Shown here in pieces: positions 4,268-63,966 of a DNA stretch of 64,000 bases. How positions within the stretch are numbered: the stretch's first letter is position 1; every line of letters starts with the position of its first letter. The notes beneath the pieces are model-generated. The model saw only the letters and a program-made list of their open reading frames with translations, ran no database searches and was not told the DNA's origin. The translations under genes were made by a program, and so were the position numbers. The DNA comes from Chiloscyllium plagiosum (taxonomy: Eukaryota), in contig NC_057719.1 in NCBI RefSeq assembly GCF_004010195.1, forward strand, positions 18,559,159 through 18,623,158, read 5' to 3'.

Positions 4268-4340
4268 CAGTTGGACTGGGGTGTACAAAGTTAAAAATCA
4301 CACAACACCAGGTTATAGTCCAATGTTCATTGTCTGGAAC
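4268..4340 (-). mobile_element. Penelope-like pseudo-LTR end fragment
   Basis: GGACTGGGGTGTACAAAGTTAAAAATCACACAACACCAGGTTATAGTCCAA, same family as 5905-5960. Confidence 0.7.
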
Positions 4341-4465: not shown

Positions 4466-4810
4466 GGCAGCCTGGTGACTCAGTGCCTCAAAGTGCCAGG
4501 GACCCGGGTTCGATTCCAGCTGTGGGTGACAGTCTTTGTGGAGTTTACATGATCTCCCTGAGTCTGTGTGGGCTTCTTCTGGGTGCTCCAGGTTCCTCCC
4601 ACAGTCCAAAGATGTATGGTTTAGGTCGATTGGCCATGCTAAATTATCCCGTAGTGTCCAGAGATGTGTAGGTTAGGTGGATTAGCCACAGTAAAGTGTA
4701 GGATTACAAGGAAAAGGTGAGGGAGCTGGGTCTGGGTGCGATGCTCTTCACAGGGTTGGTGTGGACTTGTTAGGCCAAATGGCCTCTTTCCACACTGAAG
4801 GGATTCTATG
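4466..4810 (+). mobile_element. HE1-type SINE
   Basis: tRNA-like head (TGGTGACTCAGTG...GGTTCGATTCC B box), V domain (GTGGAGTTTACATG...CTCCCACAGTCCAAAG), LINE-derived tail. Confidence 0.9.
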
Positions 4811-5889: not shown

Positions 5890-6050
5890 GTGGAGGTGCT
5901 GGTGTTGGACTGGGGCGGACAAAGTTAAAAATCACAAAGCATCATGTTATAGTCCAACAGGTTTATTTGGAAGCACAAGCTCTCAGAGCATTGCTCCTTC
6001 ATCAGGTAACTAGCTTGTACTTCCAACTAAACCTGTTGGACTATAACCTG
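5890..6050. mobile_element. Penelope-like pseudo-LTR, fold-back, second family
   Basis: Inverted arms TTATAGTCCAACAGGTTTATTTGGAAGCACAAGC / GCTTGTACTTCCAACTAAACCTGTTGGACTATAA; minus-strand core CTGATGA-A-GGAGC-AAT-GCTCT-GAGA-GCTT. Confidence 0.75.
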
Positions 6051-6054
6051 GCGT

Positions 6055-6460
6055 TGGGAGTGAGGTGCTAAAACAGCACAGCAGGTCAGGCAGCATCTGT
6101 GGAGCAGGGAAAAACAAAAATCAACTTTGGGGCATAAGCCCTTCATCAGGAATTAGGCTTTTGGGCCGGGGGGCTGACAAATAAATATGAGAGGTGTGGG
6201 GCTGGGAGGAAGATAGCTGAGAATACAATAGGTAGATGAAGGTGGTGTAGAAGGTGATAGGTCAGACAGGAGGGTGGAGCAGATAGATGGGAAAGACAAT
6301 GGACAGGTCAAGAGGGCAATGCCAATTTGGAGGCTTGGGATTGGGATAAAGTGAGAGGAGGGGATTCAAGGAACTGTTGAAATCCACATTGATCCTGTGT
6401 GGTTGCAGGGTCCCAAGGCAGAAGATGAGACATTCTTCCTCCAGGCATCGGGTGGTTAGG
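6055..6460 (-). mobile_element. Penelope-like element 3' end (GIY-YIG C-terminus plus pseudo-LTR)
   Basis: Minus-strand translation TRCLEEECLIFCLGTLQPHRINVDFNS; C-rich tract; CCTGATGAAGGGCTTATGCCCC core. Confidence 0.85.
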
Positions 6461-6465
6461 TTTAT

Positions 6466-6772
6466 ATTAGATTAGATTACTTAGTGTGGAAACAGGTCCT
6501 TCAGCACAACAAGTTCACAACAACCTTCCGAAGAGCAACCCACCCAGACCCATTCCCCTAAATTTACCCCTTACCTAACACTACGGGCAATTTAGCAAGG
6601 CCAATTCTCCTAACCTGTACATCTTTGGACTGTGGGAGGAAACCGGAGCACCTGGAGGAAACCCACGCAGACTCGGGGAGAATGTGCAAACTCCACACAG
6701 ACAGTTGCCCGAGGCAGGAATTGAACCCAGGTCTCTGGCGCTGTGAGGCAGCAGTGCTAACCACTGTGCCGC
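6466..6772 (-). mobile_element. HE1 SINE, near full length
   Basis: Reverse complement of the HE1 head, V domain and (ATCTA)n tail. Confidence 0.95.
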
Positions 6773-7471
6773 AATTTTTACCACATAAGAGCACTAAGAC
6801 AGCCAAAGACACAGAGAAGGCAGATATAAAGGCAATACACAAAGGCGATTGGTCAGATTTTGAGTGCAATGTGGCATGGTTTGATTTGTAAGTCTCCAAA
6901 TTTGGAATGCTTTTTATTTTTGTATTGTGGCCGAATGAACACAGCGATGGTCAGTGGCACAGGTGAGCTAAATTGGTGATTGGAAATTTTGAGCTTACTT
7001 ACTAACTTGCCACTCATAGAAGCCACTGACATATGCACTACATCACTATATCATGACAGTCTAGATTGGCCACCAGTGTCTGAATTTGTGTTCACTGAAC
7101 TCATGAACTTAGCAACTTAGTTGAGTTCAATTGCAATTACACTAGGGGTGTCCAAGTAGATGGCATTGCCATGGCGTCCCTCCTAGTCTCAGGCCTTACT
7201 AACATCTTTGTTGGTTACCGTGAGAAGCTCAGTTTGATGGAATGACCACAAATCTCTCATCCCTTGCATGCTTCCAGATTGGCACATTTGCAATATTGAA
7301 TCCATAGCTGCATGAAAGAATATTTTTACACAGCTCAGTAAATTTCATCCTGCTCTCAAATTTATCATTGAAATGAGCAATCAAACAAGCTTCCTTTCCT
7401 TGATGTATTAGTTGAGAAGTCTGCCAGTGGGATCTATCTACTGAAAGCCTCCAATCACTGATCCATCACTA

Positions 7472-19659: not shown

Positions 19660-20270
19660 TCTCTCTCAGGAGTCTTCGTCACACATGCTCCTCTGGGAAT
19701 TGTTGGCTGCCTGTCTTAGGGTGCTCCTCCAACATGCTGCTCTAGATATTACCAACAGCATATCTTGGTATCCTTCTCGCATAGAGGAGAAAGTGAGGAC
19801 TGCAGATGCTGAAGCTCAGAGCCAAAAAGTGTGGCACTGGAAAAGCACAGTCTGGCAGCATCCGAGGAGCAGGAGAGTTGATGTTTTGAGCGCAAGGTCT
19901 TCATCAGGAATGATGAAAAGCTTAAGCCTGAAACATCAAAACCCCTGCTCCTCAGGTACTGCCTGACCAGCTGTGCATTGCCAGCACCATACTTTTTGAC
20001 TCATCCGTCCCTCATATCTCTGTCAGGTGCTGCTGAGCTCCTGTCATGTGATCTTCCTCACACATTCTCCCCGGCATACCGACTGACTGACTTGGGGTTC
20101 TCCTGTCATATTCTGCTCTGCGATGCTGACTTTTTGCATTGGGGTCCTCTTTGACCTGCTCCTCTAGGTGTGACTGACTGCCCGCCTTGGGGTCCTGCGC
20201 TCACACATCCTGCTGGGTGCTATTGATCTTTTGTCTTGAGGTCCTCCTCTTGTGGAGAACTTGGGGCACA
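19660..20270. repeat. Degenerate ~48-bp tandem repeat
   Basis: TT(G/A)GG(G)T(C)C anchor at 19716, 19765, 20092, 20139, 20187, 20236 (47-49 bp spacing within each part); split by a PLE insertion. Confidence 0.6.
19785..20003. mobile_element. Fold-back Penelope-like pseudo-LTR
   Basis: GGAGAAAGTGAGGACTGCAGATGCTG...TCTTCATCAGGAA|TGATGAAAAGCTTAAGCCTGAAACATC...ACTTTTTGACTC inverted arms. Confidence 0.8.
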
Positions 20271-20929: not shown

Positions 20930-21980
20930 AGCCCCATCTTTCAGCATTAGATGCATAGCCTTGAATGTCATGCCACTTCAAATGTTCATCCAAGTACTTG
21001 TTAAATATTGTGAGGATACCCAGGCAGTGAATTTCAGGACCTCACCATCCTGTGGGTGAAATATATTTTCCTCAATTTCCCTCTGAAACTCCTCCCTTTC
21101 ACCTTGAAAGTGTGCCCCATGTGTTATTGATCCCTCAACTAAGGGGAACAGTGGTTTTCTTTTCACCCTGTCCATGCCGCTCAATCAGGCTCCCCCTCAG
21201 CTCTCTCTGCTCCAAAGAAAGCAACCCGAGCTTATCTCTTCAGAGCACAGTGGTTAGCACTGCTGCCTCACAGCGCCAGAGACCCGGGTTCAATCCCCAC
21301 CTCAGGCGACTGACTGTGTGGAGTTTGCACATTCTCCCCGTGTCTGCTTGGGTTTTCTCCAGGTGCTCCGGTTTCCTCCCACAGTCCAAAAATGTGCAGA
21401 TTAGGTGAATTGGCCATGCTAAATTGCCCGTAGTGTTAGATGAAGGGGTAAAATGTAGGGGAATGGGTCTGGGTGGGTTGCGCTTCAGCGGGTCGGTGTG
21501 GACTTGTTGGGCCAAAGGGCCTGTTTCCACACTGTAAGTAATCTAATCTAATCTAATCTAATCATAACTAAAGGACTCCATTCAAGACAATATTCTGGTG
21601 AATCTCCTCTACATCCCCTCTAGTGTCATCACATCCTTCCTATAGTACTTTAGCCATGGCCTAACTAAACTTTTGTGCAACTCCAGCAGAACCTCCCTGC
21701 TCTTATAAGCTATACTTCAACTAATAAAGGGAAGACCCACATGATTCTTGAGTGCCCTATAAACCTGTCCTGACACCTTCAGAGATCTGTGGACAAGCAC
21801 CCCCAGATATCTCTGCTCCTCTGAGTTTCTGAGTGTTCTATCATTCAATGATTACTCCCTTGTCCTTCTACTCCTTCCAAAGTGCATCACCTGATAACCA
21901 TCAGGGTTAAATCCCATCAGCTGCTGATGTGCCCATCTGACCAATCTGTCTGTATCCTTCTGTAACCTAAGACTTTCTTC
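20930..21980 (-). mobile_element. CR1 LINE 3' fragment interrupted by HE1
   Basis: ORF 20978-21184 MSGMDRVKRKPLFPLVEGSITHGAHF; LQKDTDRLVRWAHQQLMGFNPDGYQVMHFGR. Confidence 0.85.
21243..21563 (+). mobile_element. HE1 SINE, young, (ATCTA)n tail
   Basis: Intact head, V domain, tail GGCCAAAGGGCCTGTTTCCACACTGTAAGTAATCTAATCTAATCTAATCTA. Confidence 0.95.
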
Positions 21981-21981
21981 A

Positions 21982-23007
21982 GAATTTTGACCATACCCCT
22001 CTAAACTCTTCCTATTCATGTACCCAATCAAATATCTTTTAAATGTTGTAATTATACCAGCTTCCAACACTTCCTCTGGCAGCTCATTTCATGCACGCAA
22101 TACCCTCGACATGAAAAAGTTGCCCCTTAGGTCCCCTTTAAATCTTTCCCCTTTCACCTTAAACCTATGCCTTCTAGTTTTGCCCCCCCCCCTACCCCAG
22201 GGAAAAGACCTTGTCTATTCACCCTATCCATGCCCCTCATGATTTTATAAACCTCTATTAGGTCAGCTCTCAGCCTCTGATGCTCTTGGTAAAACAGTCC
22301 CAGCCTACTCAGCCTCTCCATATAGCTCAAATCCTCCAACCCTGGCAACATCCTTGTAAATCTTTTCTGAACCCTTTCAAGCTTCACAACATCCTTCCTA
22401 TAGCAGAGATACCAGAATTCCACGCATAGTGGCCTAACCAATATCTTATACAGCCACAACATGACCTCCCAACTCCCATACTCAATGCACTGAACAATAA
22501 ATGAAAGCATGCCAAATGCCTTCTTCATTACCTTATCTATCTGTGGCTCCACTTTCAAGGAACTATGAGCATGCACTCCAAGGTCTCTTCATTCAGCAGC
22601 ACTCCTCAGGACTCTATCATAAGTCCTGCTCTGATTTGCTTTTCCAAAATGCAACACCTCACATTGGTCTAAATTAAATTCCATCTGCCATTCTTGAGCC
22701 CATTGGCCCATCTGATCAAGAGTCATTTGTACTCTGAGGCCACATTCTTCTCTGTTCACTACACCTCCAATTTTGGTGTCATCTGCAAACTTTCTAATCA
22801 TACCTCCTATGTTCACTCCCAAATAATTTGTATAAATAACCAAAAAGCAGTGGACCCAGCATTGATCCTTGTGACACGCCACTGATCATAGGCCTCCAGT
22901 CTGAAAAGTAACCCTTCACCACTATCCTCTGTCTCTACCTTCAAGCCAGTTCTGTTTCAAAATACCTACTTCTCCCTCTATCCTGTGTGATCTAAACTTG
23001 CTAACTA
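21982..23007 (-). mobile_element. HER1/CR1 LINE ORF2 RT fragment (~1 kb)
   Basis: KFADDTKIGGVV, WQMEFNLDQCEVLHFGK, KKAFGMLSFI..LYKILVRP..LERVQKRFTRMLPGL. Confidence 0.95.
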
Positions 23008-32380: not shown

Positions 32381-33933
32381 GTAATATCACGATCTCAGCA
32401 TTTTCCATCACATGCCATTATATTAAAGCAAGTCTTTCAAGTTTTTTTAAGGGACATGGTCAAGTTAATATTTAAATTACTCTCAGAATAAAGTGCATGA
32501 GGTTATGGTAAGAATTCTACAACTGAGTGTCCATCCAAGGTGATATTAAGAGTTGTTAAGTTCACGGCATTGTTGTGTTTTTCTTCACTGTTACTCTGTC
32601 AGCTATAAATGATGTGCTCATGACATCATCAGTGAATCACAGCATGTGACTCAAGGATATTTTAAGAAATCTCCTACTCCATTTTACTTCAAGGTCACTT
32701 GAAGCATGGTAGGTGACTAAATACATGCTCCTCTGTTGTAACCTACTAGCTTAACAGTTAACACAGGCTTTGCAATATTTATATATGATAGCTAGCTGAA
32801 ATAAATGTCTGTTGTATTCTTTAATATCACAATAGTCATACCCAGTTTCAGGAGATAACATAAGCATTGCCACATGAGGTAAAACATTCTGTTGGAGGCA
32901 AAGTCAAACCAACCATAGTCAGGCAATAGCATGACGTTTAGCAGTTTTAAAGATGGTTAGAAGTAACACAGACAAAGCTGGGTTGGAAATTTATTTTTTC
33001 CCATCCCATTTCTTTGCTTTCCTCCCCTTTTATGACTCATTCATATGGCCTTTCTTCATGTGGGAAAAAAATGATGGTAGGTGATGGGAGGACACTGCAT
33101 CAAAATGCATTCAAATGTTCATCATAAATGTCTTTGAGCAAGGAGTATGAACTGTGTGATCAAGACTAGGAACGTTGGCTTCATTTGGCTAGCCTATTCT
33201 GTATAGTACTGTTACTCAGTACAGGCTAGGGATTAAACCAGGTATCTGCTTGTTTATACCAAGTCAGGCAATGTATTCAGCAATTGAGCTACCTGGAGAG
33301 TTGACAGTGGACATTTTCAGGATAAAATGGAGGAAGCTCCAGTTTTTAGGATAGTTTGTCAGGATAATGCAGAGCAATGAATTGCATCTACCCAGATATT
33401 TACTTGAAAGTGCTAGGTGCTGTCAATATGTGCAAAGTGGAAGATTTGCCATCACTGCTGTCATGCTTCACCTTGATAAGTGCACAAGCAGAAAAAAAAC
33501 CTAGAGTTTTCAGACTGCGCTGCATTGCTATCAGGAATGAAATATTGAAGACAACTGACAGAAATATTAGCTGTAAAGTTTGTGTGGATGATGTGGTATG
33601 TGACCGAAGGTAAAGTTTGTTTGAGGTAACTTGCTGCCACCAATCCACTTTTATCTATTATCTGTCCATGTTCTGCCTAATGATCAATGGACAGCAAACT
33701 AGATGGTTTATTGCATGAAAGCAGCAAGCACAACCTACATTACTAGTCAAACATAATTACTAAGGATTGTCAATAGCTCTACTGAATACATCTATTCCCT
33801 ATGACAGTTAGTATAGAACACACTACTTCCACTCAAAGACTACACATGATACCAGATTGGGTGAAGCCACTGAAACTTCAACATTCAACTCCATTTACAA
33901 GTTTTCTGGCGACACCACTGTTATAGGTCACCA

Positions 33934-34268
33934 TCATAGAATCCACACAGTGTGGAAACAGGCTATTTGGCCCAATAAGTCCATGCCAATCCTCTGAAGA
34001 GCAAACCATCATTCCCCTACCCTATTATTCAACATTTAACATAGTTAATACACCTAACCTACACATCCCTGAACACTACGGGCAATTTAACATGGCCAAA
34101 TCACCTAACCTGCACATCTTTTGGATTGTGGGAGGAAACTGGAGCACCTGGAGGAAACCCACGCAGACACGAGGAGAATGTGCAAACTCCACACAGACAG
34201 TTGGCCAAGACTGGAATTGAACCTGGGTCCCTGGTGCTGTGAGGCAGCAGTGCTAACCACTGAGCCAC
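33934..34268 (-). mobile_element. HE1 SINE
   Basis: Reverse head and V domain. Confidence 0.95.
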
Positions 34269-34269
34269 A

Positions 34270-36049: not shown

Positions 36050-37865
36050 ATGCAGCAGGAATGTGGAAGAGCATGCAAGCAGCAGCACCAGGGGTGTTGA
36101 ACTGGTGAAATTACTACAAGACTCCAGACATGTTAGACAGCTGAAGAATTGTGCAATGGAGAGTTCCTTGATCCCACAGCCAATAGATTAGCTCAAAACC
36201 ATGCCACATACGGTTATGAAATTTGATAGATAATTAAGCAACTAATGAAAGGAGGAGGATCCATGAACATCCACATTTCAATGATGGCAGAGGCCAGTCT
36301 ATACTTGCTAAAGAAAAATCTCAACTGTTACTAATTATCTTCAAAAAGTGGACAAAGCATCTAACATCACAGAAGCTTGTTTTCAGTCAACTCAATTCAG
36401 TCCATGTTGCATTAAGAACTAGCTGGCTACAGCAAAAGGTGAAGGTTCCAACAACACTCTGGTTACAGTGCTAGTGCCCAGAACTAACTGTTACAATTCA
36501 GTGACAGCACTAGCTATATGACAAAGATCAGATCAGCCATAATCTCATTGAACGACAGAGCAGACTCAATGGGCCAAATGGCCTACTTCTGTTCCTGTGT
36601 CTTCAGGTTTGAGGTGGTAAATTGCGATATATGTCCTCCCCTCAAAAATCCCCTCCAATTGAATGTTTGCCCCATCAATCTACTTACAATCATCAGTAAA
36701 ATGTTGGAAATAATCATTGACAGTGCTATCAAGTGACACTTATTCACCAAGAGCCTGCTCACTTATGTTCAATTTGTGTTCCACGAAATATTTTCACAAG
36801 AGATAATTCAAGACGTGAAGTGAGCATGACTGCCTGTGACATAAAGACAACATTTGACTGAGTGTGACGTTAAGGAGCCCCAGTGAATTTGTGGCCAATA
36901 AAATGAGGAGGAAACAGTGGCTCAGTGGTTACCACTGCAGCCTCACAGCACCAGGGTCCCAGGTTTGATACCAGCTTTGGGCGAGTGTCTGTGTGGAGTT
37001 TGCACATTCTCCCTGTGTCTGCATGGGTTTCCTCCGGGTGCTCCGGTTTCCTCCCACAATCCAATGACGTGCCGGTCAGGTGAATTGGCCATGCTAAATT
37101 GCCCATAGTGTTAGGTGCATTAGTCAGAGGGAGATGGGTCCGGATGGCTTACTCTTTGGAGGTTCTGGTTGGGCCAAAGGGCCTGTTTCCAAACTGTAGG
37201 GAATCTAATCTTAAAAAAAAATCTTCATTGACTGGAGTCACACTGAATTTTCAAGACCAGTCATCTCAGCCTAGTTCATAGCTGCAAGATTATCTCAGAG
37301 CAGGGGATTCTAGGCCCAACTATTTTAACTTCCTTATTGGCGTAGGCTTGGTGAGTTGAAAAGCCTGTTCCTAGGATGTATCATTGTTTGTTCTTTGTTC
37401 TTATCAATGACTTCCAAGCAATCATAAAGTCAGAAATCAGATTTTCATTGTTTTGTATTCTGCAAGAATTGTAAACAAAACATGTCACAGGCATAGCAAC
37501 TAATGTCATCTCTACATAGCTCCAATATGTAAAATATACCACATTTGAGATGTACGCAGCAACTCTCCATTGTCATTCTACTAGCTTCCCAAATCTGCCA
37601 CCTCTACCACCTAAGGCAGCAAAAGTATGAGAACTCCACCACCTAAATGTTATCCTGCAAGTTCCACAACACTCTGACTTGGAAATATATCAGCAATGCT
37701 TCATCACTGATTGGTCAAAATCCTCAAAATCGCTAGTTTTGGGACTATCTTCACCAGCCTGACTGCATTTCTTCAAGAATGTTTATCATCGGTTTTTCAA
37801 GAGTACTAAAGTTTGGGCAATAAATATTGATTGTGCCAGGGACATCAACATCCTTGGTGTAAATT
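36050..37865 (+). mobile_element. L2/CR1-like LINE, heavily decayed, interrupted by HE1
   Basis: CPINLLTIISKMLEIIIDSAIK; DIKTTFD*V*; 3' tail GGGCAATAAATATTG. Confidence 0.7.
36914..37218 (+). mobile_element. HE1 SINE
   Basis: Head, V domain, tail. Confidence 0.9.
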
Positions 37866-38528: not shown

Positions 38529-38852
38529 ATTTAGTCAGTCAGTGATTTTGACCAATGTCATCAGTAATGGGAATTGAAACAAGTTTGTCTATTCTCAACA
38601 CAATGGACCAATTTCTAAAATTTATTGTAATATTGGAACAGGAGTAGACCATTCAGTCCTTACGAGGTAAAAACAATGACTGCAGATGCTGGAAACCAGA
38701 TTCTGGATCAGTGGTGATTTAGTCAGTCAGTGATTTTGACCAATGTCATCAGTAATGGGAATTGAAACAAGTTTGTCTATTCTCAACACGATGGACCAAT
38801 TTCTAAAATTTATTGTAACATTGGAACAGGAGTAGACCATTCAGTCCTTACG
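38529..38852. repeat. 136-bp direct duplication flanking a 52-bp PLE terminal fragment
   Basis: 38529-38664 vs 38717-38852 (2 mismatches); spacer AGGTAAAAACAATGACTGCAGATGCTGGAAACCAGATTCTGGATCAGTGGTG. Confidence 0.95.
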
Positions 38853-39744: not shown

Positions 39745-42040
39745 GCAAACATGGTTAGCCCATACCTGGAGTACTGTGTACAGTTTTGGTTTCCTTAGCT
39801 CAGGAAAAGTATTATTGCCAAACAGGGAATGCAAGGAAGGTTCACCAGATCTGTTCTAGGATGGTGGGATTGACCTATGAAGAGAAATTGGGAAAATTGT
39901 GCCCTGTATTCTCGAGAGTTTTGAAAAATGAAAGGTGATTTAATTGAAACCGACAAAATACTGAAAGAGATAGTTAGGGTAGAACCAGTTAAGATGGTTC
40001 CCCCGACTGGAAGTGTCTAGAATGAAGGGGGTGGAATTTAAAAATAAAGAGCAATGTTACTTAAGACCAAGATGAGAACTTGCTTATTTTGGAAATTGCT
40101 GCTTTGGAATGCTCTACCACAGAAGACTATGGCATTCAGGGTTATAGTGATTGGATCGGTAAAAGTCATTGAAATGTTCAATCAGTCATGATCATATTGA
40201 GTGATGGGCTGGCTCGATAGACTGAATAGCCTATACTTGTCAGGGCCACTGAAGTTTCTGGATAGTGCACATGATGTCTGACCGTTGCTGCAATGCAGAT
40301 CAGAATAACGTAAGAAATGACCCAGTCACTGCCCATTTGACCCCGTTCTGGCATTCAGTAAGATCACAGCTGAAATTTAATATCAATTCCATTTTCCACA
40401 CTATTTATCATATTCCTCAACTCCCTTGGAGTCATTAAAAAGTCTCAACCTTGGTTTCGAATATACTCAACAAAAAAAGATCCACAACTTTCTAAGATGA
40501 GGATTCCAAAGATTCAGAACCCATAATGAAAAAAAAAACAAATTCTCCTAATCTCTTATCCTGAAATGGAAATGAATAGCTCAACATTTACCCCTTTGAG
40601 AATTTCATACTTTTCCATGAAATCATTTCTCATTCCTCGAAGCTGCAGGGAATGTCAAAGCATTTTACTCATAGGACAATCCTCTCATTCCAAGAATCAA
40701 TCTAGTGACGTTCCAATAGGTCATTCTAAGTTGGATATATTCAAAAGAATGTGGAAGCATGAGATACGGTTCTGGGGATGGGAATCATTAGTTAGGTAAC
40801 TAGATTGAGAATGTCAAGACTGTTCTGCACGGAGAGGAGACGATGGAAAGGTTTGATCGAGATATTCAAAATCATGAGGTGTGCGGAAACAGTAGATCAG
40901 GGAAAACTGTTCCAATAGTGGAAGAAGTTGACCAGTTGACATTAATTTAAGATGATTGACAAAAGTAATGGCTAATCAAGGAAAACCTCTTCTACAAAAT
41001 GAACAGCTGGGTTCTTGATAGCACTGCCTGAGAATGTGATGGAGGCACATTCCGTTGTAGCTTTCAAAAGAGAATTGGATCATTTTCTGAACAAGGAAAT
41101 ATTGTAGGACAAAGAGGAAAAGGCAGAGGATTGGTGTTCAGATGAATTCCTCTTACAGAGAGTCAGAACAGATAGAATGAGCTTCATGGGCTCTTGCGCC
41201 ATAACCAAACTATAAGAATTAATCATAGGTAAGGAGACTTAAACAATAAATGGTATGCTGGTGTGGAATAATGAAAGCTCTTTAGAATTGCAGGGGAACT
41301 TCCTTACTCTTGTACTCCAAATCCATTCCAATAAAGGTCAACACATCACTTTCTTTCCTAATTGCTTGCTGGACTTACATGTTAACTTTCTGTGACCAGC
41401 ATGCAAAGAACTCATCGCCATGAAAAACATTGACTTTTTCCTCACCTGAAACAGTTTGCTTATCCGTTGTTGTTTTTATCCAAGTGGATAAACTTCACAC
41501 TTTTCCACTTTATACTTCATTTGACTTTTTTTCCAGCCTAGTTCATTAGCAACTCCATAATATTTCACTCTGTTTGTCCCCTCTCATAACATCAACCATT
41601 TTTTATTAAATTAGCAAACTTGGAGATTTTTAACACTTGCTCCTCTCATTCAAGTGATTGAAATAGAAAATTTGAGGCCCAAGCACTGGTGCTTGCTAAC
41701 CTGAACCTGCCCCACCTGCTTCTATCCCCTGGTTTCTATCTGCTAACTAATCACAATCTAATTTAATATTTTACCTCAATCACATGAAGTCTAGTCTTGT
41801 GCAATACTCTCTTGTAAGGTTGGATCTATTGGAAAACCTTCTGAAAATCCAAATATGTGACCCCCTTATTGACCGTTCTAATTGCATACTCAAAAAAATT
41901 AATACATTTGTCAAACATAATATCCTTTACAGGAAACCAAGCAGAGTTTGCCTATTTTGAATTTTGTAAGTGCCATACCATCAAGTACTAAATAATAGAT
42001 GCTAACATTTTCTGTATTGCCAATGTCAGACTAATTGGCC
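39745..42040. mobile_element. Cluster of old CR1 fragments in alternating orientation
   Basis: CCATACCTGGAGTACTGTGTACAGTTTTGG (P.LEYCVQFW), CR1 3' UTR motifs, reverse RT fragments 41280-42040. Confidence 0.7.
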
Positions 42041-42051
42041 TCTGGTTCCCT

Positions 42052-42146
42052 TATTCCTGATGAAGGGCTTTTGCCCGAAACGTCGATTTTGCCTGTCCTC
42101 GGATGCTGCCTGAATTGCTGTGCTCTTCCAGCACCACTAATCCAGA
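42052..42146 (+). mobile_element. 95-bp PLE pseudo-LTR insertion with 12-bp TSD
   Basis: CTCTGGTTCCCT at 42040-42051 and 42147-42158. Confidence 0.9.
42053..42088 (+). ncRNA. Minimal type-I hammerhead ribozyme motif
   Basis: CTGATGA(42057-63)-A-GGGC-TTTT-GCCC-GAAA-C-GTC(42082-84); ACGT palindrome at stem III; stem I pairing is short and imperfect in this copy. Confidence 0.75.
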
Positions 42147-42791
42147 CTCTGGTTCCCTAATTCCTGTTTTGTCATCTTTGGCATTTAAACCACCAAGATT
42201 TAGATCAACTAACACATCATGGCCTAGGGTTTAATCCAAGACCTTCCTGATCTAAACATGGCTCAGCAGTTTTTAAAGTAATGCATTTGCCCATTGAATA
42301 CTGTGACTTACAATGGTCATGAGACCTCTGATATAGTTTATTTCAATTTAAGCCATTAAACTTTCCATGTGAAACACAGTGTGGAATCTGGCCTTCTCAG
42401 ATCCTTTAGAAGGAAAAGTGAAGGTTCTTATAGGCAGGAGGACTGAAGTATGTTTCCTTATACAGAGTTAAGTGTTTACTATTAGGTTCTCAGAATTCCT
42501 CAGGCAAGTTGGGTTTCTTGACTGTAATCAGCAGGAACCAATTTTTATATTTGCATGTCATGAAACCTCATTAACATTCCAGCTCTCTGGAATTCCATTC
42601 ACTGGCACAATTTTTGTTATTCAAAAATAGGAAGCAAATCTGTGTAGAAACATAAGCATTATAAGAAGCAGCATCTTCTGGTTAATCCAATCCAACTAAA
42701 GCCTTAGGAGTGGCATAAGAGCGAGATTGGGATTGGGGACCTCCTTTTATGTGCATTCAGGAGAAGAGGAGAACTTTCCAGGCCAGACAAA

Positions 42792-42840: not shown

Positions 42841-43213
42841 TGGCAGGAAATGTCAAACATTACGAGTAGAAAATGATACTCAAAAGGAGGCAGTAGAGGG
42901 TTATAAAGTTTAACACCACTGTCTTGCACTAAGTCATTCTGGAGAAAGTGCAGTGTAAAGAAGGCAATTAGAGTGTAACCATCATGTGGGACAGTCTATA
43001 GATATTTAAAAGCACATACTTTGCATGTTTAGGGAAGCCAACAAATTTATCTGTCAGCTCCTTCAGGGAGCTGTGTAATCACATAGCTCGGGAGGAAATG
43101 CTGTGCCTATGGGCGAGAAGAATACAGTAGTATTTTTTCTTTATTCATTCACAGGATGAGGGTGTCACTGGCTAGGCAGCATTTATTGCCCATCCCTGAC
43201 TGCCCAGTTAAGA

Positions 43214-43426
43214 GCTGGAAATGTGTTGCTGGAAAAGCGCAGCAGGTCAGGCAGCAACCAGGGAACAGGAGAATCGACGTTTCGGGCATAAGCCCTTCTT
43301 CAGGGCAAGTTTGCTTATGCCCGAAACGTCGATTCTCCTGTTCCCTGGATGCTGCCTGACCTGCTGCGCTTTTCCAGCAACACATTTCCAGCTCTGATCT
43401 CCAGCATCTGCAGACCTCACTTTCTC
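43214..43426. mobile_element. Young fold-back PLE pseudo-LTR with intact minus-strand hammerhead core
   Basis: 83-bp arms 43211-43293 / 43313-43395 (1 mismatch); TSD CTGCCCAGTTAAGA at 43200-43213 and 43427-43440. Confidence 0.95.
43272..43305 (-). ncRNA. Minimal hammerhead ribozyme motif
   Basis: Minus strand CTGAAGA-A-GGGC-TTAT-GCCC-GAAA-C-GTC-GA. Confidence 0.7.
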
Positions 43427-44799
43427 CTGCCCAGTTAAGAGACAACCATAGACCTGTGATCTGGATTCACATGTAGGCCAGATATGGATAGCAGTTTCTT
43501 TCCCTAAAGGATATTAGTGAACCAGATGGCTTGTCCATCAATCAACAATGCATTCATGGTTATCATTAGACTCTTAATTCCAGATTTTAAAAAAAATTCA
43601 AATTCCACCATCTACCATGGTGGGATTCAAACCCAGGTCCCCAGAACATCATCGGGATCTCTGGAGGCACAGTCCAGCAATAATACCACTAGGCCATCAC
43701 CTCCTCAAGCTTTGAAGCTCCTTGTCACCTGATCCTTTGCTGAGGGTTTGTGGACTGGTGATTGAAAACCATTCGGTTTGTTCAGTTCAGCTTGGACATA
43801 AAGAGTCAAGATGCCAGAGCTGTCAGATTTGCAGCCAATGCTGTGGTTGCTCAGATACAAGGAGGCATCGATTGTATCCTTTTGGTATCAAATAGGTAAA
43901 TTGCTGATCAGGGAGGGATTTCATTCCTTTTTTCACACTGTGAACACAGGCAAGAATTTATGCAGGTAAACCTCTGTTACCCCCAGTGATTTGCCACCAC
44001 TCATACATTCTGCACAACTCCCTGGCAAATACAGCATCATTTCAAGAGCAGACAAATGGAAGAGATAAGGGAAATCCTCAGAGGATTGCCTAACGACCCT
44101 TTACAAAACCATCAGACAGATGCCGAATTGTGTTATAATGTAGCTGATGAATCTGCAATTGCCATCAACGTAAAGGGAGTTCATGTTCTGAAGATGGGCT
44201 TTCAATGCCTGGACTGCTCAAGAGGAACACTTCAGTTGTCTCTGGACAGGGTCACCAGCAGTGATTGCTTGTTGGTCCCTGAACTAGCTCAGTGGACGGT
44301 GTGATACCTTAGAAAAGATTGGGATGGACCAGCCACCTGCATTTTCAAATTTGGAAGGGGGGTAAGACAGAGATGCTGACATATGCAATGCTGAGGCAGA
44401 GAAAGGCAGTGTAATCATGAAACAGGCAGGTCAAAGACAATTTGGTACCGGCTACGTTTTACAACCGATGACTATGCACAAATCTTTGTGGATATGCAGG
44501 TGTAATAGCCAGTTCTGATGTTCAAGGCTTACAATCCTCAAGGGAATGCATAATTTATAATGATGAAACTTCATGTTGCTCTGCTTGCCAGACATCGTGA
44601 ATCTCTTTGTTGCTTTTGCACAGATAAAGTTATGTTCAGTTTGGTTGCCAGAGCATCAGGATGGAACCCTGTGGGCTGACTCTTGTGTAACATGGATCTT
44701 TGTTTGTAAAGGACATTTCTCTATCACTGAGATGTGTAGGGATCATGAAATGCTGATTGACTCATGCAACACAACCACACAAATTTCTGTTCCTGTTCC

Positions 44800-54732: not shown

Positions 54733-55055
54733 ATTAGATTAAATTTTTTAGATTCCCTACAGTGTGGAAACAGGCCCTTCAGCCCAACCAGTCTACACCG
54801 ACCCTCCGAACCATAACCCACCCAGACCCATTTCCCTCTGACTAATGCATCTAATACTATGGGCAATTGATCATGGCTAATTCACCTGACCTGCACATCT
54901 TTGGACTGTGGGAGGAAACAGGAGCACCCACTGGAAACCAAGTCAGACACGGCGAGAATGTGCAAACTCCACACAGACAGTCACTCAAGGCTGGAATCGA
55001 ACCTGGAGCTCTGGTGCTGTGAGGCAACAGTGCTAACCACTGAGCCACCATGCCC
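54733..55055 (-). mobile_element. HE1 SINE
   Basis: Reverse full body. Confidence 0.95.
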
Positions 55056-55624
55056 CCAATATCTAGCGATAATAACACTAAACCATTGCCACCTATCTTT
55101 TGGTCTGTAACATGCACTTATTTACAAAAGCGGCCATGCCTTTTATTTAGCCTTTCTATGTGCAGAAATTTGATGAAAGTTTCTGTGGGGACCTGAGGTC
55201 AATATCAAAATTTCTAAGCAAAATCTTCAGCGTGTCCAAATAGTGCTTCCTTTTACCACCATAATGGCATGCCTCAGGCTCGACCTCTCTATAAGAGATT
55301 TACTTTGGCAAGCAAGTGTCAGGCATTCTGACCACATTACCAGCTCAATTCAGTGTAACTATGTCAGTATGATGGGAAGACTTATCAAGCCACTATCTCT
55401 GTGTCCAGTAATTTGCCCTACCTCTGATCTTCAGAAGCTTCCAAAAGCAGCAAACGTGAAAATGTTAGAGCTTCTTTGTGCGATGCTAGTACACCATCCA
55501 AGTCTCACATACTAGAGAGAAAATTGGGCAAAACTGTAGCACTGTAGATTTTCTATTTGAAAGACAGATTTACTCCCCAGCATCCCCAGAATGATATTAA
55601 AGGCTATTTTGGTAGGCATTTTTA

Positions 55625-62834: not shown

Positions 62835-63657
62835 TATCATAGAGTCAGAGCGATGTACAGCACGGGAAACAGAGCCTTCAGTTCAATCCAACAATGCCAA
62901 CCAGATATCCTAAACGAACCTATTCCCATTTGCCAGCACTTGAGCCCATACCACTCTCAACACTTCCTATTCATATACCTATCCAGATGCCTTTTAAATG
63001 TTGTAATTGGACTAGCCTCCACCACTTCCTCTGGCAGCTCATTCCACACATGCACCATCTTCTGTGTGAAAACGTTGCCCCTTAGGTCCCTTTTAAAATT
63101 TTCCCCTTTCACCCTAAACCTATGTCCTCTTGTTCTGGACTCCCACAACCCAGGAAAAGGATCTTGTCTGTTTATCCTATCCATGTCCCTCAGATTTTAT
63201 AAACCTTTATAAGGTCACCCCTCAGCCTCCGACGTTCCAGGGAAAATGGCCCCAGCCTTTGGCTCAAATCCTCCTACTCTGGCAAAATCCTTGTAAATCA
63301 TTTCTAAACCCTTTCAAGTTTCACAACATCCTTCCAATAGGAAGGAGGCCAGAATTGCACACAGTATTCCAAAAGTGTCCTAACCAATGTCCTGTACAGC
63401 TGCAACATGACCTTGCAACTCCTATACTAGATGCTCTGACCAATAAAGGAGAGCATACCAAACGCCTTCTTCACTATCCTATCTACCTGCGACTCCACTT
63501 TCAAGGAATTATGAACCTGCATTCCAAGTCTCTTTGTTCAGCAACATTCCCCAGGGCCTTACCATTAAGTGTATAAGTCCTGCCCTGATTTGCTTTTCCA
63601 AATGCAGAACCTCGCATTTAGTTAAATTAAACTCCATCTGCCAATCCTTGGCCCATT
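62835..63657 (-). mobile_element. HER1/CR1 LINE 3' ~0.8 kb
   Basis: ESRTRGHRFRVKGENFKRDLRGNVFTQKMVHVWNELPEEVVEASPITTFKRHLDRYMNR. Confidence 0.95.
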
Positions 63658-63662
63658 CAAAA

Positions 63663-63966
63663 CATGGCACGGCCATTCAGTAATTAGCACTGTTAGCCTC
63701 ATAGTGCCAGGGATCTGGGTTCGATTCCACCCTCAGGCCACTGCCTTTGTGGATTTTGCATATTCTCCCCATGTCTGCATGGGTTTCCTCTGGTTTTCTG
63801 TTTTCCTCCCACAGACTAACAATGTGTAGGTCAAGTGGATTAGCCATGGGCAATGCAGGATTACAGGGATAGGATTAGGATGGTGGGTCCGAATGGGATG
63901 CTCTTTAAAGGGACAATGTGGACTCAATGGGCCAATTGGCCTGTTTCTATACTATGAGGATTCTGT
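63663..63966 (+). mobile_element. HE1-type SINE
   Basis: GGCACGG..CAGTAATTAGCACTG..GGGTTCGATTCC head, V domain, tail. Confidence 0.85.

Follow-up and report, generated by a model that had tools for sequence, protein, structure and literature searches.

A recent 5′-truncated insertion of a Penelope-like element carrying a minimal hammerhead sequence in a shark genome

Insertion and target site

The analysed window, a 64,000-nt stretch of DNA, contains an insertion of 95 nt enclosed by perfect 12-bp direct repeats (Table 1). The repeat can be extended to 20 nt at 19/20 identity (42040–42059 vs. 42147–42166) because the target beside the duplication resembles the 5′ end of the element, but the comparison with the empty site shows that only 12 bp were duplicated and that the further 8 nt are target sequence. 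The 95-nt copy is 96/96 identical to a reference built from two other genomic copies. The last T of the left duplication is also the next base of the element, a 1-nt microhomology, and the match between the right duplication and the next bases of the element may reflect primer–template pairing.

As a check for the empty site, assembled contigs from four public runs, representing organisms A, B, and C, were aligned to positions 41600–42600. A 751-nt contig of organism C, a related species, passes from 42039 straight into 42147. In organism B, likewise a related species, a contig carries 27 nt in place of the 133 nt of the window; both empty sites are short by about 107 nt, the length of the insertion plus one repeat. 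Contigs from the two runs of organism A enter the element from both flanks, and no empty-site joint was found among the contigs listed. Among the three organisms compared, the insertion is confined to the species of organism A. The empty sites of organisms B and C show that the insertion is young and that the duplication is real, and they rule out a tandem duplication or a chance repeat as the origin of the flanking repeats. A 20-bp target-site duplication is similarly ruled out, in favor of 12 bp plus target microhomology. The single locus is of minor importance, serving as a presence/absence marker that separates the source species from two relatives.

Table 1. Features of the insertion, its target site and its nearest relative (window coordinates)
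Position	Strand	Feature	Basis or remark
42040..42051	+	Left copy of the 12-bp target-site duplication	Sequence; present once at the empty sites of organisms B and C
42052..42146	+	5′-truncated, tail-less copy of the 3′ pseudo-LTR (pLTR) of a Neptune-type Penelope-like element (PLE), 95 nt	Not present in organism B or C
42052..42056	+	5′ strand of hammerhead stem I	Sequence; 2 bp + U·U + 1 bp with 42085–42088
42057..42064	+	CUGAUGA catalytic core with one additional A (between 9 and 10.1)	Sequence
42065..42076	+	Stem-loop II, GGGC-UUUU-GCCC (G10.1–C11.1)	Sequence, predicted fold
42077..42084	+	GAAA, self-complementary ACGU, and C17	Sequence; ACGU would form stem III between two copies only
42085..42146	+	pLTR sequence 3′ of the predicted cut	Its end is the more upstream of the two 3′ ends preferred in the family
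42147..42158	+	Right copy of the target-site duplication	9/12 bases match the element's own next bases
42159..42166	+	Unduplicated target sequence	Matches the element's first 8 nt at 7/8; 5′-junction microhomology
43211..43428		Nearest relative: older-subfamily insertion with two arms, head to head	Minus-strand arm antisense to the 95-nt copy in a plus-strand transcript

Hammerhead core and predicted fold

All core nucleotides of a hammerhead are present in the insertion. C3-U4-G5-A6-U7-G8-A9 occupies 42057–42063 and is followed by the extra A at 42064; G12-A13-A14-A15.1 lies at 42077–42080, the ACGU palindrome at 42080–42083, and C17 at 42084. Hammerhead numbering places the predicted cut between 42084 and 42085. 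Stem I consists of 2 bp, a U·U mismatch, and 1 bp, and the same pairing recurs in 64 like copies. The three CpGs (42076/77, 42081/82, and 42084/85) are all intact. The predicted fold is an inactive hairpin in which UGAUG of the core pairs with CGUCG (−11.4 kcal/mol), and Rfam gave no match in the window at gathering thresholds. The original prediction had described 12-bp repeats around a 95-nt insertion with a complete core and intact CpGs, and the sequence reads as claimed, although neither the short stem I nor the inactive fold had been mentioned; its further statement that this is a young insertion of a Penelope-type minimal hammerhead with pLTR sequence is borne out by the empty site in two related species and by the pLTR identity.

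By eye, the reference pLTR and the copies L004 and L006 contain one frame with no stop between a point slightly 5′ of the hammerhead and the start of the open reading frame (ORF), across the pLTR and the tail, and in the same three sequences the AUG within CUGAUGA opens a separate frame of 16 codons.

The parent element

At 30 loci of a 37-nt core sequence, a GIY-YIG endonuclease is encoded in the upstream extensions that reach furthest (L021). The reverse transcriptase (RT) motifs DKG and YIDD were found in a broken longer copy (L193), and in the longer copies the order is RT motifs, a CX4CxxC linker, and then the GIY-YIG domain with a CCHH motif. The CCHH motif, two Cys of which fall between GIY and YIG, and the CX2-5CxxC linker were recognized by eye in L183, L186, L192, L193, and L197. 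The Pfam GIY-YIG score of 21.3 (E = 3.5e-4) falls just below the curated cut-off of 22.6, and two short peptide pieces had no Pfam match. The closest database proteins come from Chiloscyllium punctatum (84–86%) and Stegostoma tigrinum (60%), which points to a carpet shark as the probable host; the database homologs carry RVT_1 and GIY-YIG, RVT_1 being above the cut-off in one and GIY-YIG just below. In PMC8557442, the CX2-5CxxC linker is described as absent in Penelope/Poseidon, while CCHH and the linker together define the Neptune type. By those definitions the parent reads as an EN+ PLE of the Neptune type, an assignment made from motifs read by eye.

A 26-mer marking the sequence after the pLTR that opens the ORF has 950 exact matches. 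The gapped assembly yielded no intact full-length parent, its long copies being either broken or interrupted by gaps, and the longest "open frames" were rejected as an intact parent, since they were assembly gaps. Because no such parent was recovered, we only infer that the source element is autonomous. Two other observations were made at these loci. The upstream part of L019 contains a degraded stretch, adjoining a longer PLE copy, which we take to resemble large-subunit rRNA. At L204:2546-6997 (G000:C101948, minus), two consecutive long intronless frames of 902 and 581 aa are unrelated to the 95-nt insertion, and the first of them matches URGCP and URGCP-like GTPase domains.

Copy number and other copies in the window

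A DNA search of the source genome with the whole element came back empty, as common words are skipped, and exact patterns were used for the counts. The 37-nt core has 9,838 exact copies in the 3.56-Gb genome and a 38-nt part downstream of it has 10,115, the reversed controls giving 0 in both cases, which rules out a chance origin of the core motif. An 18-nt anchor of the insertion's own subfamily has 6,854 matches genome-wide. The idea that the genome is seeded with tiny ribozyme-bearing units is thus supported by the count of exact 37-nt cores. Within the window, blastn gave 10 family-1 and 1 family-2 core-spanning matches, and a relaxed structural scan found 9 cores, compared with 0–2 in each of 10 shuffled windows; two of the nine are perfect, on opposite strands, and about three look like chance. 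The claim of more than a dozen cores in 64 kb therefore holds roughly if decayed and partial copies are counted but not otherwise.

The nearest relative is an antisense copy 1.1 kb away. Its pairing arm (43211–43308) has a predicted duplex energy of −140.7 kcal/mol with the 95-nt copy and −175.2 kcal/mol with its own partner arm. Two-armed head-to-head insertions are found at 2308–2487, 19784–20002, 43211–43428, and 5913–6056, with one arm ending at the short 3′ site and the other carrying the tail; one tail-less and one tailed arm are consistent with priming by both cut strands. A second PLE family has its own minimal hammerhead with an AGCU palindrome and a 3-bp stem I (5913–6056 and 4279–4323), and many of its copies likewise begin just before the core. 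A 52-nt tail-only fragment of the same family as the 95-nt insertion (38665–38716, minus strand) lies between two 136-bp copies that are 98.5% identical (38529–38852), an unusually long target duplication for this element.

The window also holds copies of an interspersed repeat of ~310 bp (4484–4810, 6461–6773, 21245–21562, 33930–34269, 36917–37219, 54733–55059, and 63677–63964), presumably similar to shark HE1/V-SINE, and LINE-like fragments at 21991–22704 and 62946–63657. Of the 302 non-repeat open frames of the window, the 150 longest were compared with Pfam; none matched above the cut-off, one had a weak match to DUF2380, and no host exon was recognized among them.

Ends of the family copies

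The ends were mapped in the 100 matches listed of a 3′ anchor, all within the first 19 Mb of one contig (C1). Among these 100 copies, 50 end at, or within a few bases of, the end of the 95-nt insertion, 49 end at the tail end, and 1 ends elsewhere. The tail is the 36 nt between the two preferred 3′ ends, and 1 of the 49 tailed copies continues into the ORF. Such bimodality is the known "tail" pattern of internal priming in PLEs: an optional tail of 30–40 bp is described in PMC8557442, and PMC11167929 attributes the tail to reverse transcription starting at either of two internal sites.

The 5′ ends were resolved for 83 of the 100 copies listed, the other 17 running into assembly gaps. Thirteen lie 3′ of the predicted cut (a few being sequence variants), 5 at the cut, 8 at −1 to −20, 40 at −21 to −46, and 15 further upstream; the 2 others extend past the 470-nt reference. 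Between −21 and −46 the ends occur at 3.0% per nt, compared with 0.34% per nt further upstream, and the 95-nt insertion begins at −33/−34 relative to the predicted cut. The 5′ ends thus cluster at the 5′ edge of the hammerhead, while varying from copy to copy over 26 nt, with unique flanks, and the same sequence is present in copies extending >470 nt upstream (L042 and L099). An inverted partner arm was flagged in 25 of the 83 resolved copies. Among the other 58, one-armed, copies, a strict search (at least 7 nt) found an exact duplication of 8–16 nt in 12, which show microhomology of 0–7 nt at the 5′ junction and 0–3 nt at the 3′ junction; one of them, L102, is a near twin of the 95-nt insertion. 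The insertion is a typical member of the family, at the high end for microhomology.

A lack of shared ends among the short copies had been set beforehand as a refutation of the original prediction. The outcome is mixed: the 3′ ends are common, at two sites, whereas the 5′ ends cluster without being fixed. Random truncation would give a less regular pattern than this tight clustering of 5′ ends, which may most simply reflect the 5′ end of the RNA, set by a pLTR promoter, or release of the polymerase after a hairpin. A pLTR promoter would give run-off products of this size if priming took place at the first pLTR/ORF junction of the transcript, and PMC2377424 reports an internal promoter in Drosophila Penelope. 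A cap-derived extra G was not apparent by eye at the clustered 5′ ends. Under the alternative, the polymerase would be released after the hairpin and a U-rich stretch.

Origin of the insertion

The locus very probably represents the 3′ end of a Neptune-type Penelope-like retrotransposon, inserted recently in 5′-truncated form. It likely arose by target-primed reverse transcription of uncut RNA and is likely unable to move again or to self-cleave. The insertion itself, its 12-bp duplication and youth, the identity of its sequence with the pLTR of an element with RT and GIY-YIG, the two 3′ ends, and the clustered 5′ ends are all observed; the mechanism is modeled on the anatomy of the insertion and on PMC11167929. 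The element's endonuclease would nick the target, and the nicked strand would prime at the upstream one of the two internal start sites, aided by partial pairing with the RNA. Copying would then run about 95 nt through the whole hammerhead, ending at its 5′ edge, which would mean that this template was not self-cleaved. The new DNA would join the target via about 7 nt of microhomology, and repair would produce the 12-bp duplication. For an anole PLE, unprocessed RNA is the main template, cleavage is not needed, and the hammerhead cleaves only with protein, in vitro; the first 172 nt of the ORF are required on the RNA (PMC11167929). By analogy, the tail-less 95-nt copy is likely a dead end. As a population record, such stumps show how a PLE primes (at two internal sites), joins (by microhomology), and stops.

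The original prediction had suggested a non-autonomous retrozyme-like family. In a rival history of this kind, the short units would be retrozyme- or SINE-like, with transcription driven by a pLTR promoter of their own and re-mobilization by the PLE protein. The very high copy number of the short units and the clustering of their 5′ ends near the hammerhead would suit such a family, as would the internal promoter of Drosophila Penelope and the proposal, made in bioRxiv 10.64898/2026.07.22.740005, that animal retrozymes derive from PLE pLTRs. The copies are not tandem, however: a second same-strand substrate strand lies within 1 kb in 7 of the 100 copies listed, at irregular distances. Their 5′ ends differ among copies and their flanks are unique, and short and long copies form one continuous series from the ORF-bearing element. 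The tail-less copies, moreover, stop before the tail start site and the ORF-start region needed on the anole PLE RNA (PMC11167929), although that element is of a different clade and the comparison is one of analogy only. We consider a retrozyme- or SINE-like family improbable, and this part of the original prediction is not upheld.

Still less credible, and in our judgment highly improbable, is the proposal that two copies can pair into a functional ribozyme and so cleave host pre-mRNA. The core nucleotides are intact at the 95-nt insertion and in about 10,000 copies, the ACGU palindrome permits a 4-bp intermolecular stem III, and the hammerhead of the anole PLE does cleave in vitro with protein help (PMC11167929). 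The intact cores, however, are accounted for by the youth of the insertion. In a nearest-neighbor model that ignores tertiary contacts, the active double hammerhead is predicted at −10.3 vs. −22.8 kcal/mol for two inactive hairpins, leaving the active dimer about 12 kcal/mol less stable, and stem I has 2 bp. The nearest copy lies antisense, and a long duplex between it and the 95-nt copy is predicted. The only two perfect cores of the window are on opposite strands, and dimers of the Schistosoma mansoni min-HHR cleave poorly (PMC4209133). On these models, cleavage of host RNA by the 95-nt copy is unsupported and disfavored. 

A peak of 5′ ends at the predicted cut

A further pattern selected copies of the U7/GAUUUU subfamily ending between −9 and +6; it had 513 matches, of which the 100 listed were tallied by hand. 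Left out of the tally were 14 copies at +5 and 14 at +6, positions that absorb starts further downstream, and one copy with an indel. Among the remaining 71, with 5′ ends at positions −9 to +4, 24 start at the base directly after C17 (binomial P = 6e-11), and the rate at this base, where cleavage is predicted, is about nine times that at the nine positions upstream. Eight cut-start copies with a readable target share 0–6 nt with it (1, 4, 6, 2, 1, 0, 0, and 1). Extrapolating from the 24 of the 100 listed of 513 matches, cut-start insertions make up about 3% of the young subfamily, or roughly 220 of 6,854.

Internal slippage was rejected as the cause of the peak, as 18 of 65 ends are still at the cut after removal of six cases of slippage or microhomology (P = 4e-7). 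CpG decay was rejected as well: a T precedes the G in 11 of the 24, more than the 4 ends at −1 could account for, and only 2 of these 11 match at −2. The correlation between the arms of two-armed inserts was discarded as evidence for cleavage, as the partners are mostly short for other starts too (8 of 10 by eye).

In the CUGAAGA (A7) subfamily, used as a control, 10 of 81 ends are at the cut (P = 0.06; 100 listed of 1,715 matches, with 16 at +5/+6 and 3 unusable ones left out), and the peaks of the A7 and U7 subfamilies differ (Fisher P = 0.002). In an older mixed set (100 listed of 4,412), 9–11 ends fall at the cut, against about 3 at each of the positions −1 to −5, a peak mainly found in GATTTT variants and inflated by CpG decay. 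No peak was seen in the second PLE family, whose palindrome is AGCU and whose stem I is better: by eye, 0–2 ends fall at the cut among the 100 listed of 2,972, a count confounded by a 2-nt length variant.

The peak could be a fossil record of hammerhead cutting in the germ line, in which the cut-start insertions were copied from self-cleaved RNA and the larger class, including the 95-nt copy, from uncut RNA starting just before the ribozyme; we hold this to be possible but doubtful. As the inactive hairpin ends at the same base as the cut, stalling and release of the polymerase at the base of the hairpin (UGAUG/CGUCG) after the U run explains the pattern at least as well as cleavage, and we give it about an even chance, leaving the remainder to an unexplained junction preference. 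The predicted hairpin ends at the cut, with C-1 paired at 0.99 and G0 at 0.68, and the peak is strong in the U7/GAUUUU copies listed and, in the older set, mainly in GATTTT variants. Among the matches listed of the A7 subfamily, whose core breaks the helix, there is no significant peak, nor was one seen by eye in the second family, subject to its length variant. On the other hand, the stronger stem II has no comparable peak at its 3′ base (2 ends at −8 and 5 at −7), and G0 was still paired in the one A7 copy that was folded with its flanking sequence (0.74, with another partner), making this control not clean. In one two-armed insertion (L205), both arms start exactly at the cut, which speaks against stalling. 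Overall, the controls lean towards polymerase stalling. The L205 insertion (G000:C2, about 20,821,500) has one extra base between its arms and a duplication of 11 bp or longer.

For cleavage in vivo by the minimal hammerheads of metazoan PLEs, PMC4209133 gives no evidence, and PMC11167929 reports no RNA reads starting or ending at the cleavage site. The 5′-end peak offers a cheap, direct test of such cleavage. If the cleavage reading is true, the peak would be in vivo evidence for a loop-less PLE hammerhead with a 2-bp stem I, together with a map of the transcript start. Our literature search, judged by its listings and lacking most subscription papers, found no paper on this shark family or on PLE 5′ ends at the cleavage site.

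Comparison with known systems

The family resembles the truncated EN+ PLEs of the Neptune clade described in PMC11167929 and PMC8557442. It shares with them a pLTR with a hammerhead, heavy 5′ truncation, inverted partner arms, a variable duplication, and an optional tail of 30–40 nt, here 36 nt, and the ORF of the parent likewise combines RT, the CX4CxxC linker, and a C-terminal CCHH GIY-YIG (PMC8557442). The 95-nt copy itself is truncated, tail-less, and one-armed, with a 12-bp duplication. Unlike in the Neptune PLEs described, the copies here are extremely short and numerous, with 5′ ends concentrated at the hammerhead. Target and element are similar at both junctions; in the anole PLE, by contrast, priming in vitro took place at a nonhomologous site (PMC11167929).

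With the min-HHRs of metazoan PLEs described in PMC4209133, the insertion shares the full core, the extra base between positions 9 and 10.1, the G10.1–C11.1 pair, and the palindromic 15.2–16.2 without loop 3, as well as the occurrence as dispersed single copies. Helix I has 4–5 bp in the S. mansoni families compared with 2 bp, U·U, and 1 bp here; a 2-bp helix I is reported for a Drosophila virilis variant. The same paper reports no cleavage of min-HHR monomers and low cleavage of dimers, and describes thousands of single min-HHRs per genome, probably truncated PLEs (sharks are unnamed in its main text).

The non-LTR retrozymes of animals (PMC7229834 and bioRxiv 10.64898/2026.07.22.740005) are alike in being noncoding, PLE-related units with a type-I hammerhead, of which dispersed monomers exist; the survey in the latter includes one cartilaginous fish. 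Unlike these, the copies here are not tandem, have no second ribozyme bounding the unit, and are directly continuous with the PLE ORF in the longer copies. Non-LTR retrozymes are further characterized by linear and circular monomer RNAs. According to PMC7229834, a non-LTR retrozyme has a canonical type-I hammerhead with loop–loop contacts in a monomer of 150–450 bp, repeated in tandem with the hammerhead in at least two consecutive units, whereas the present insertion is a single 95-nt unit with a minimal core and no loop 1. By the published definitions the 95-nt copy is therefore not a non-LTR retrozyme, being nontandem, minimal in its core, and continuous with an ORF; it is classed as a truncated EN+ PLE insertion carrying a min-HHR, a kind that is already known.
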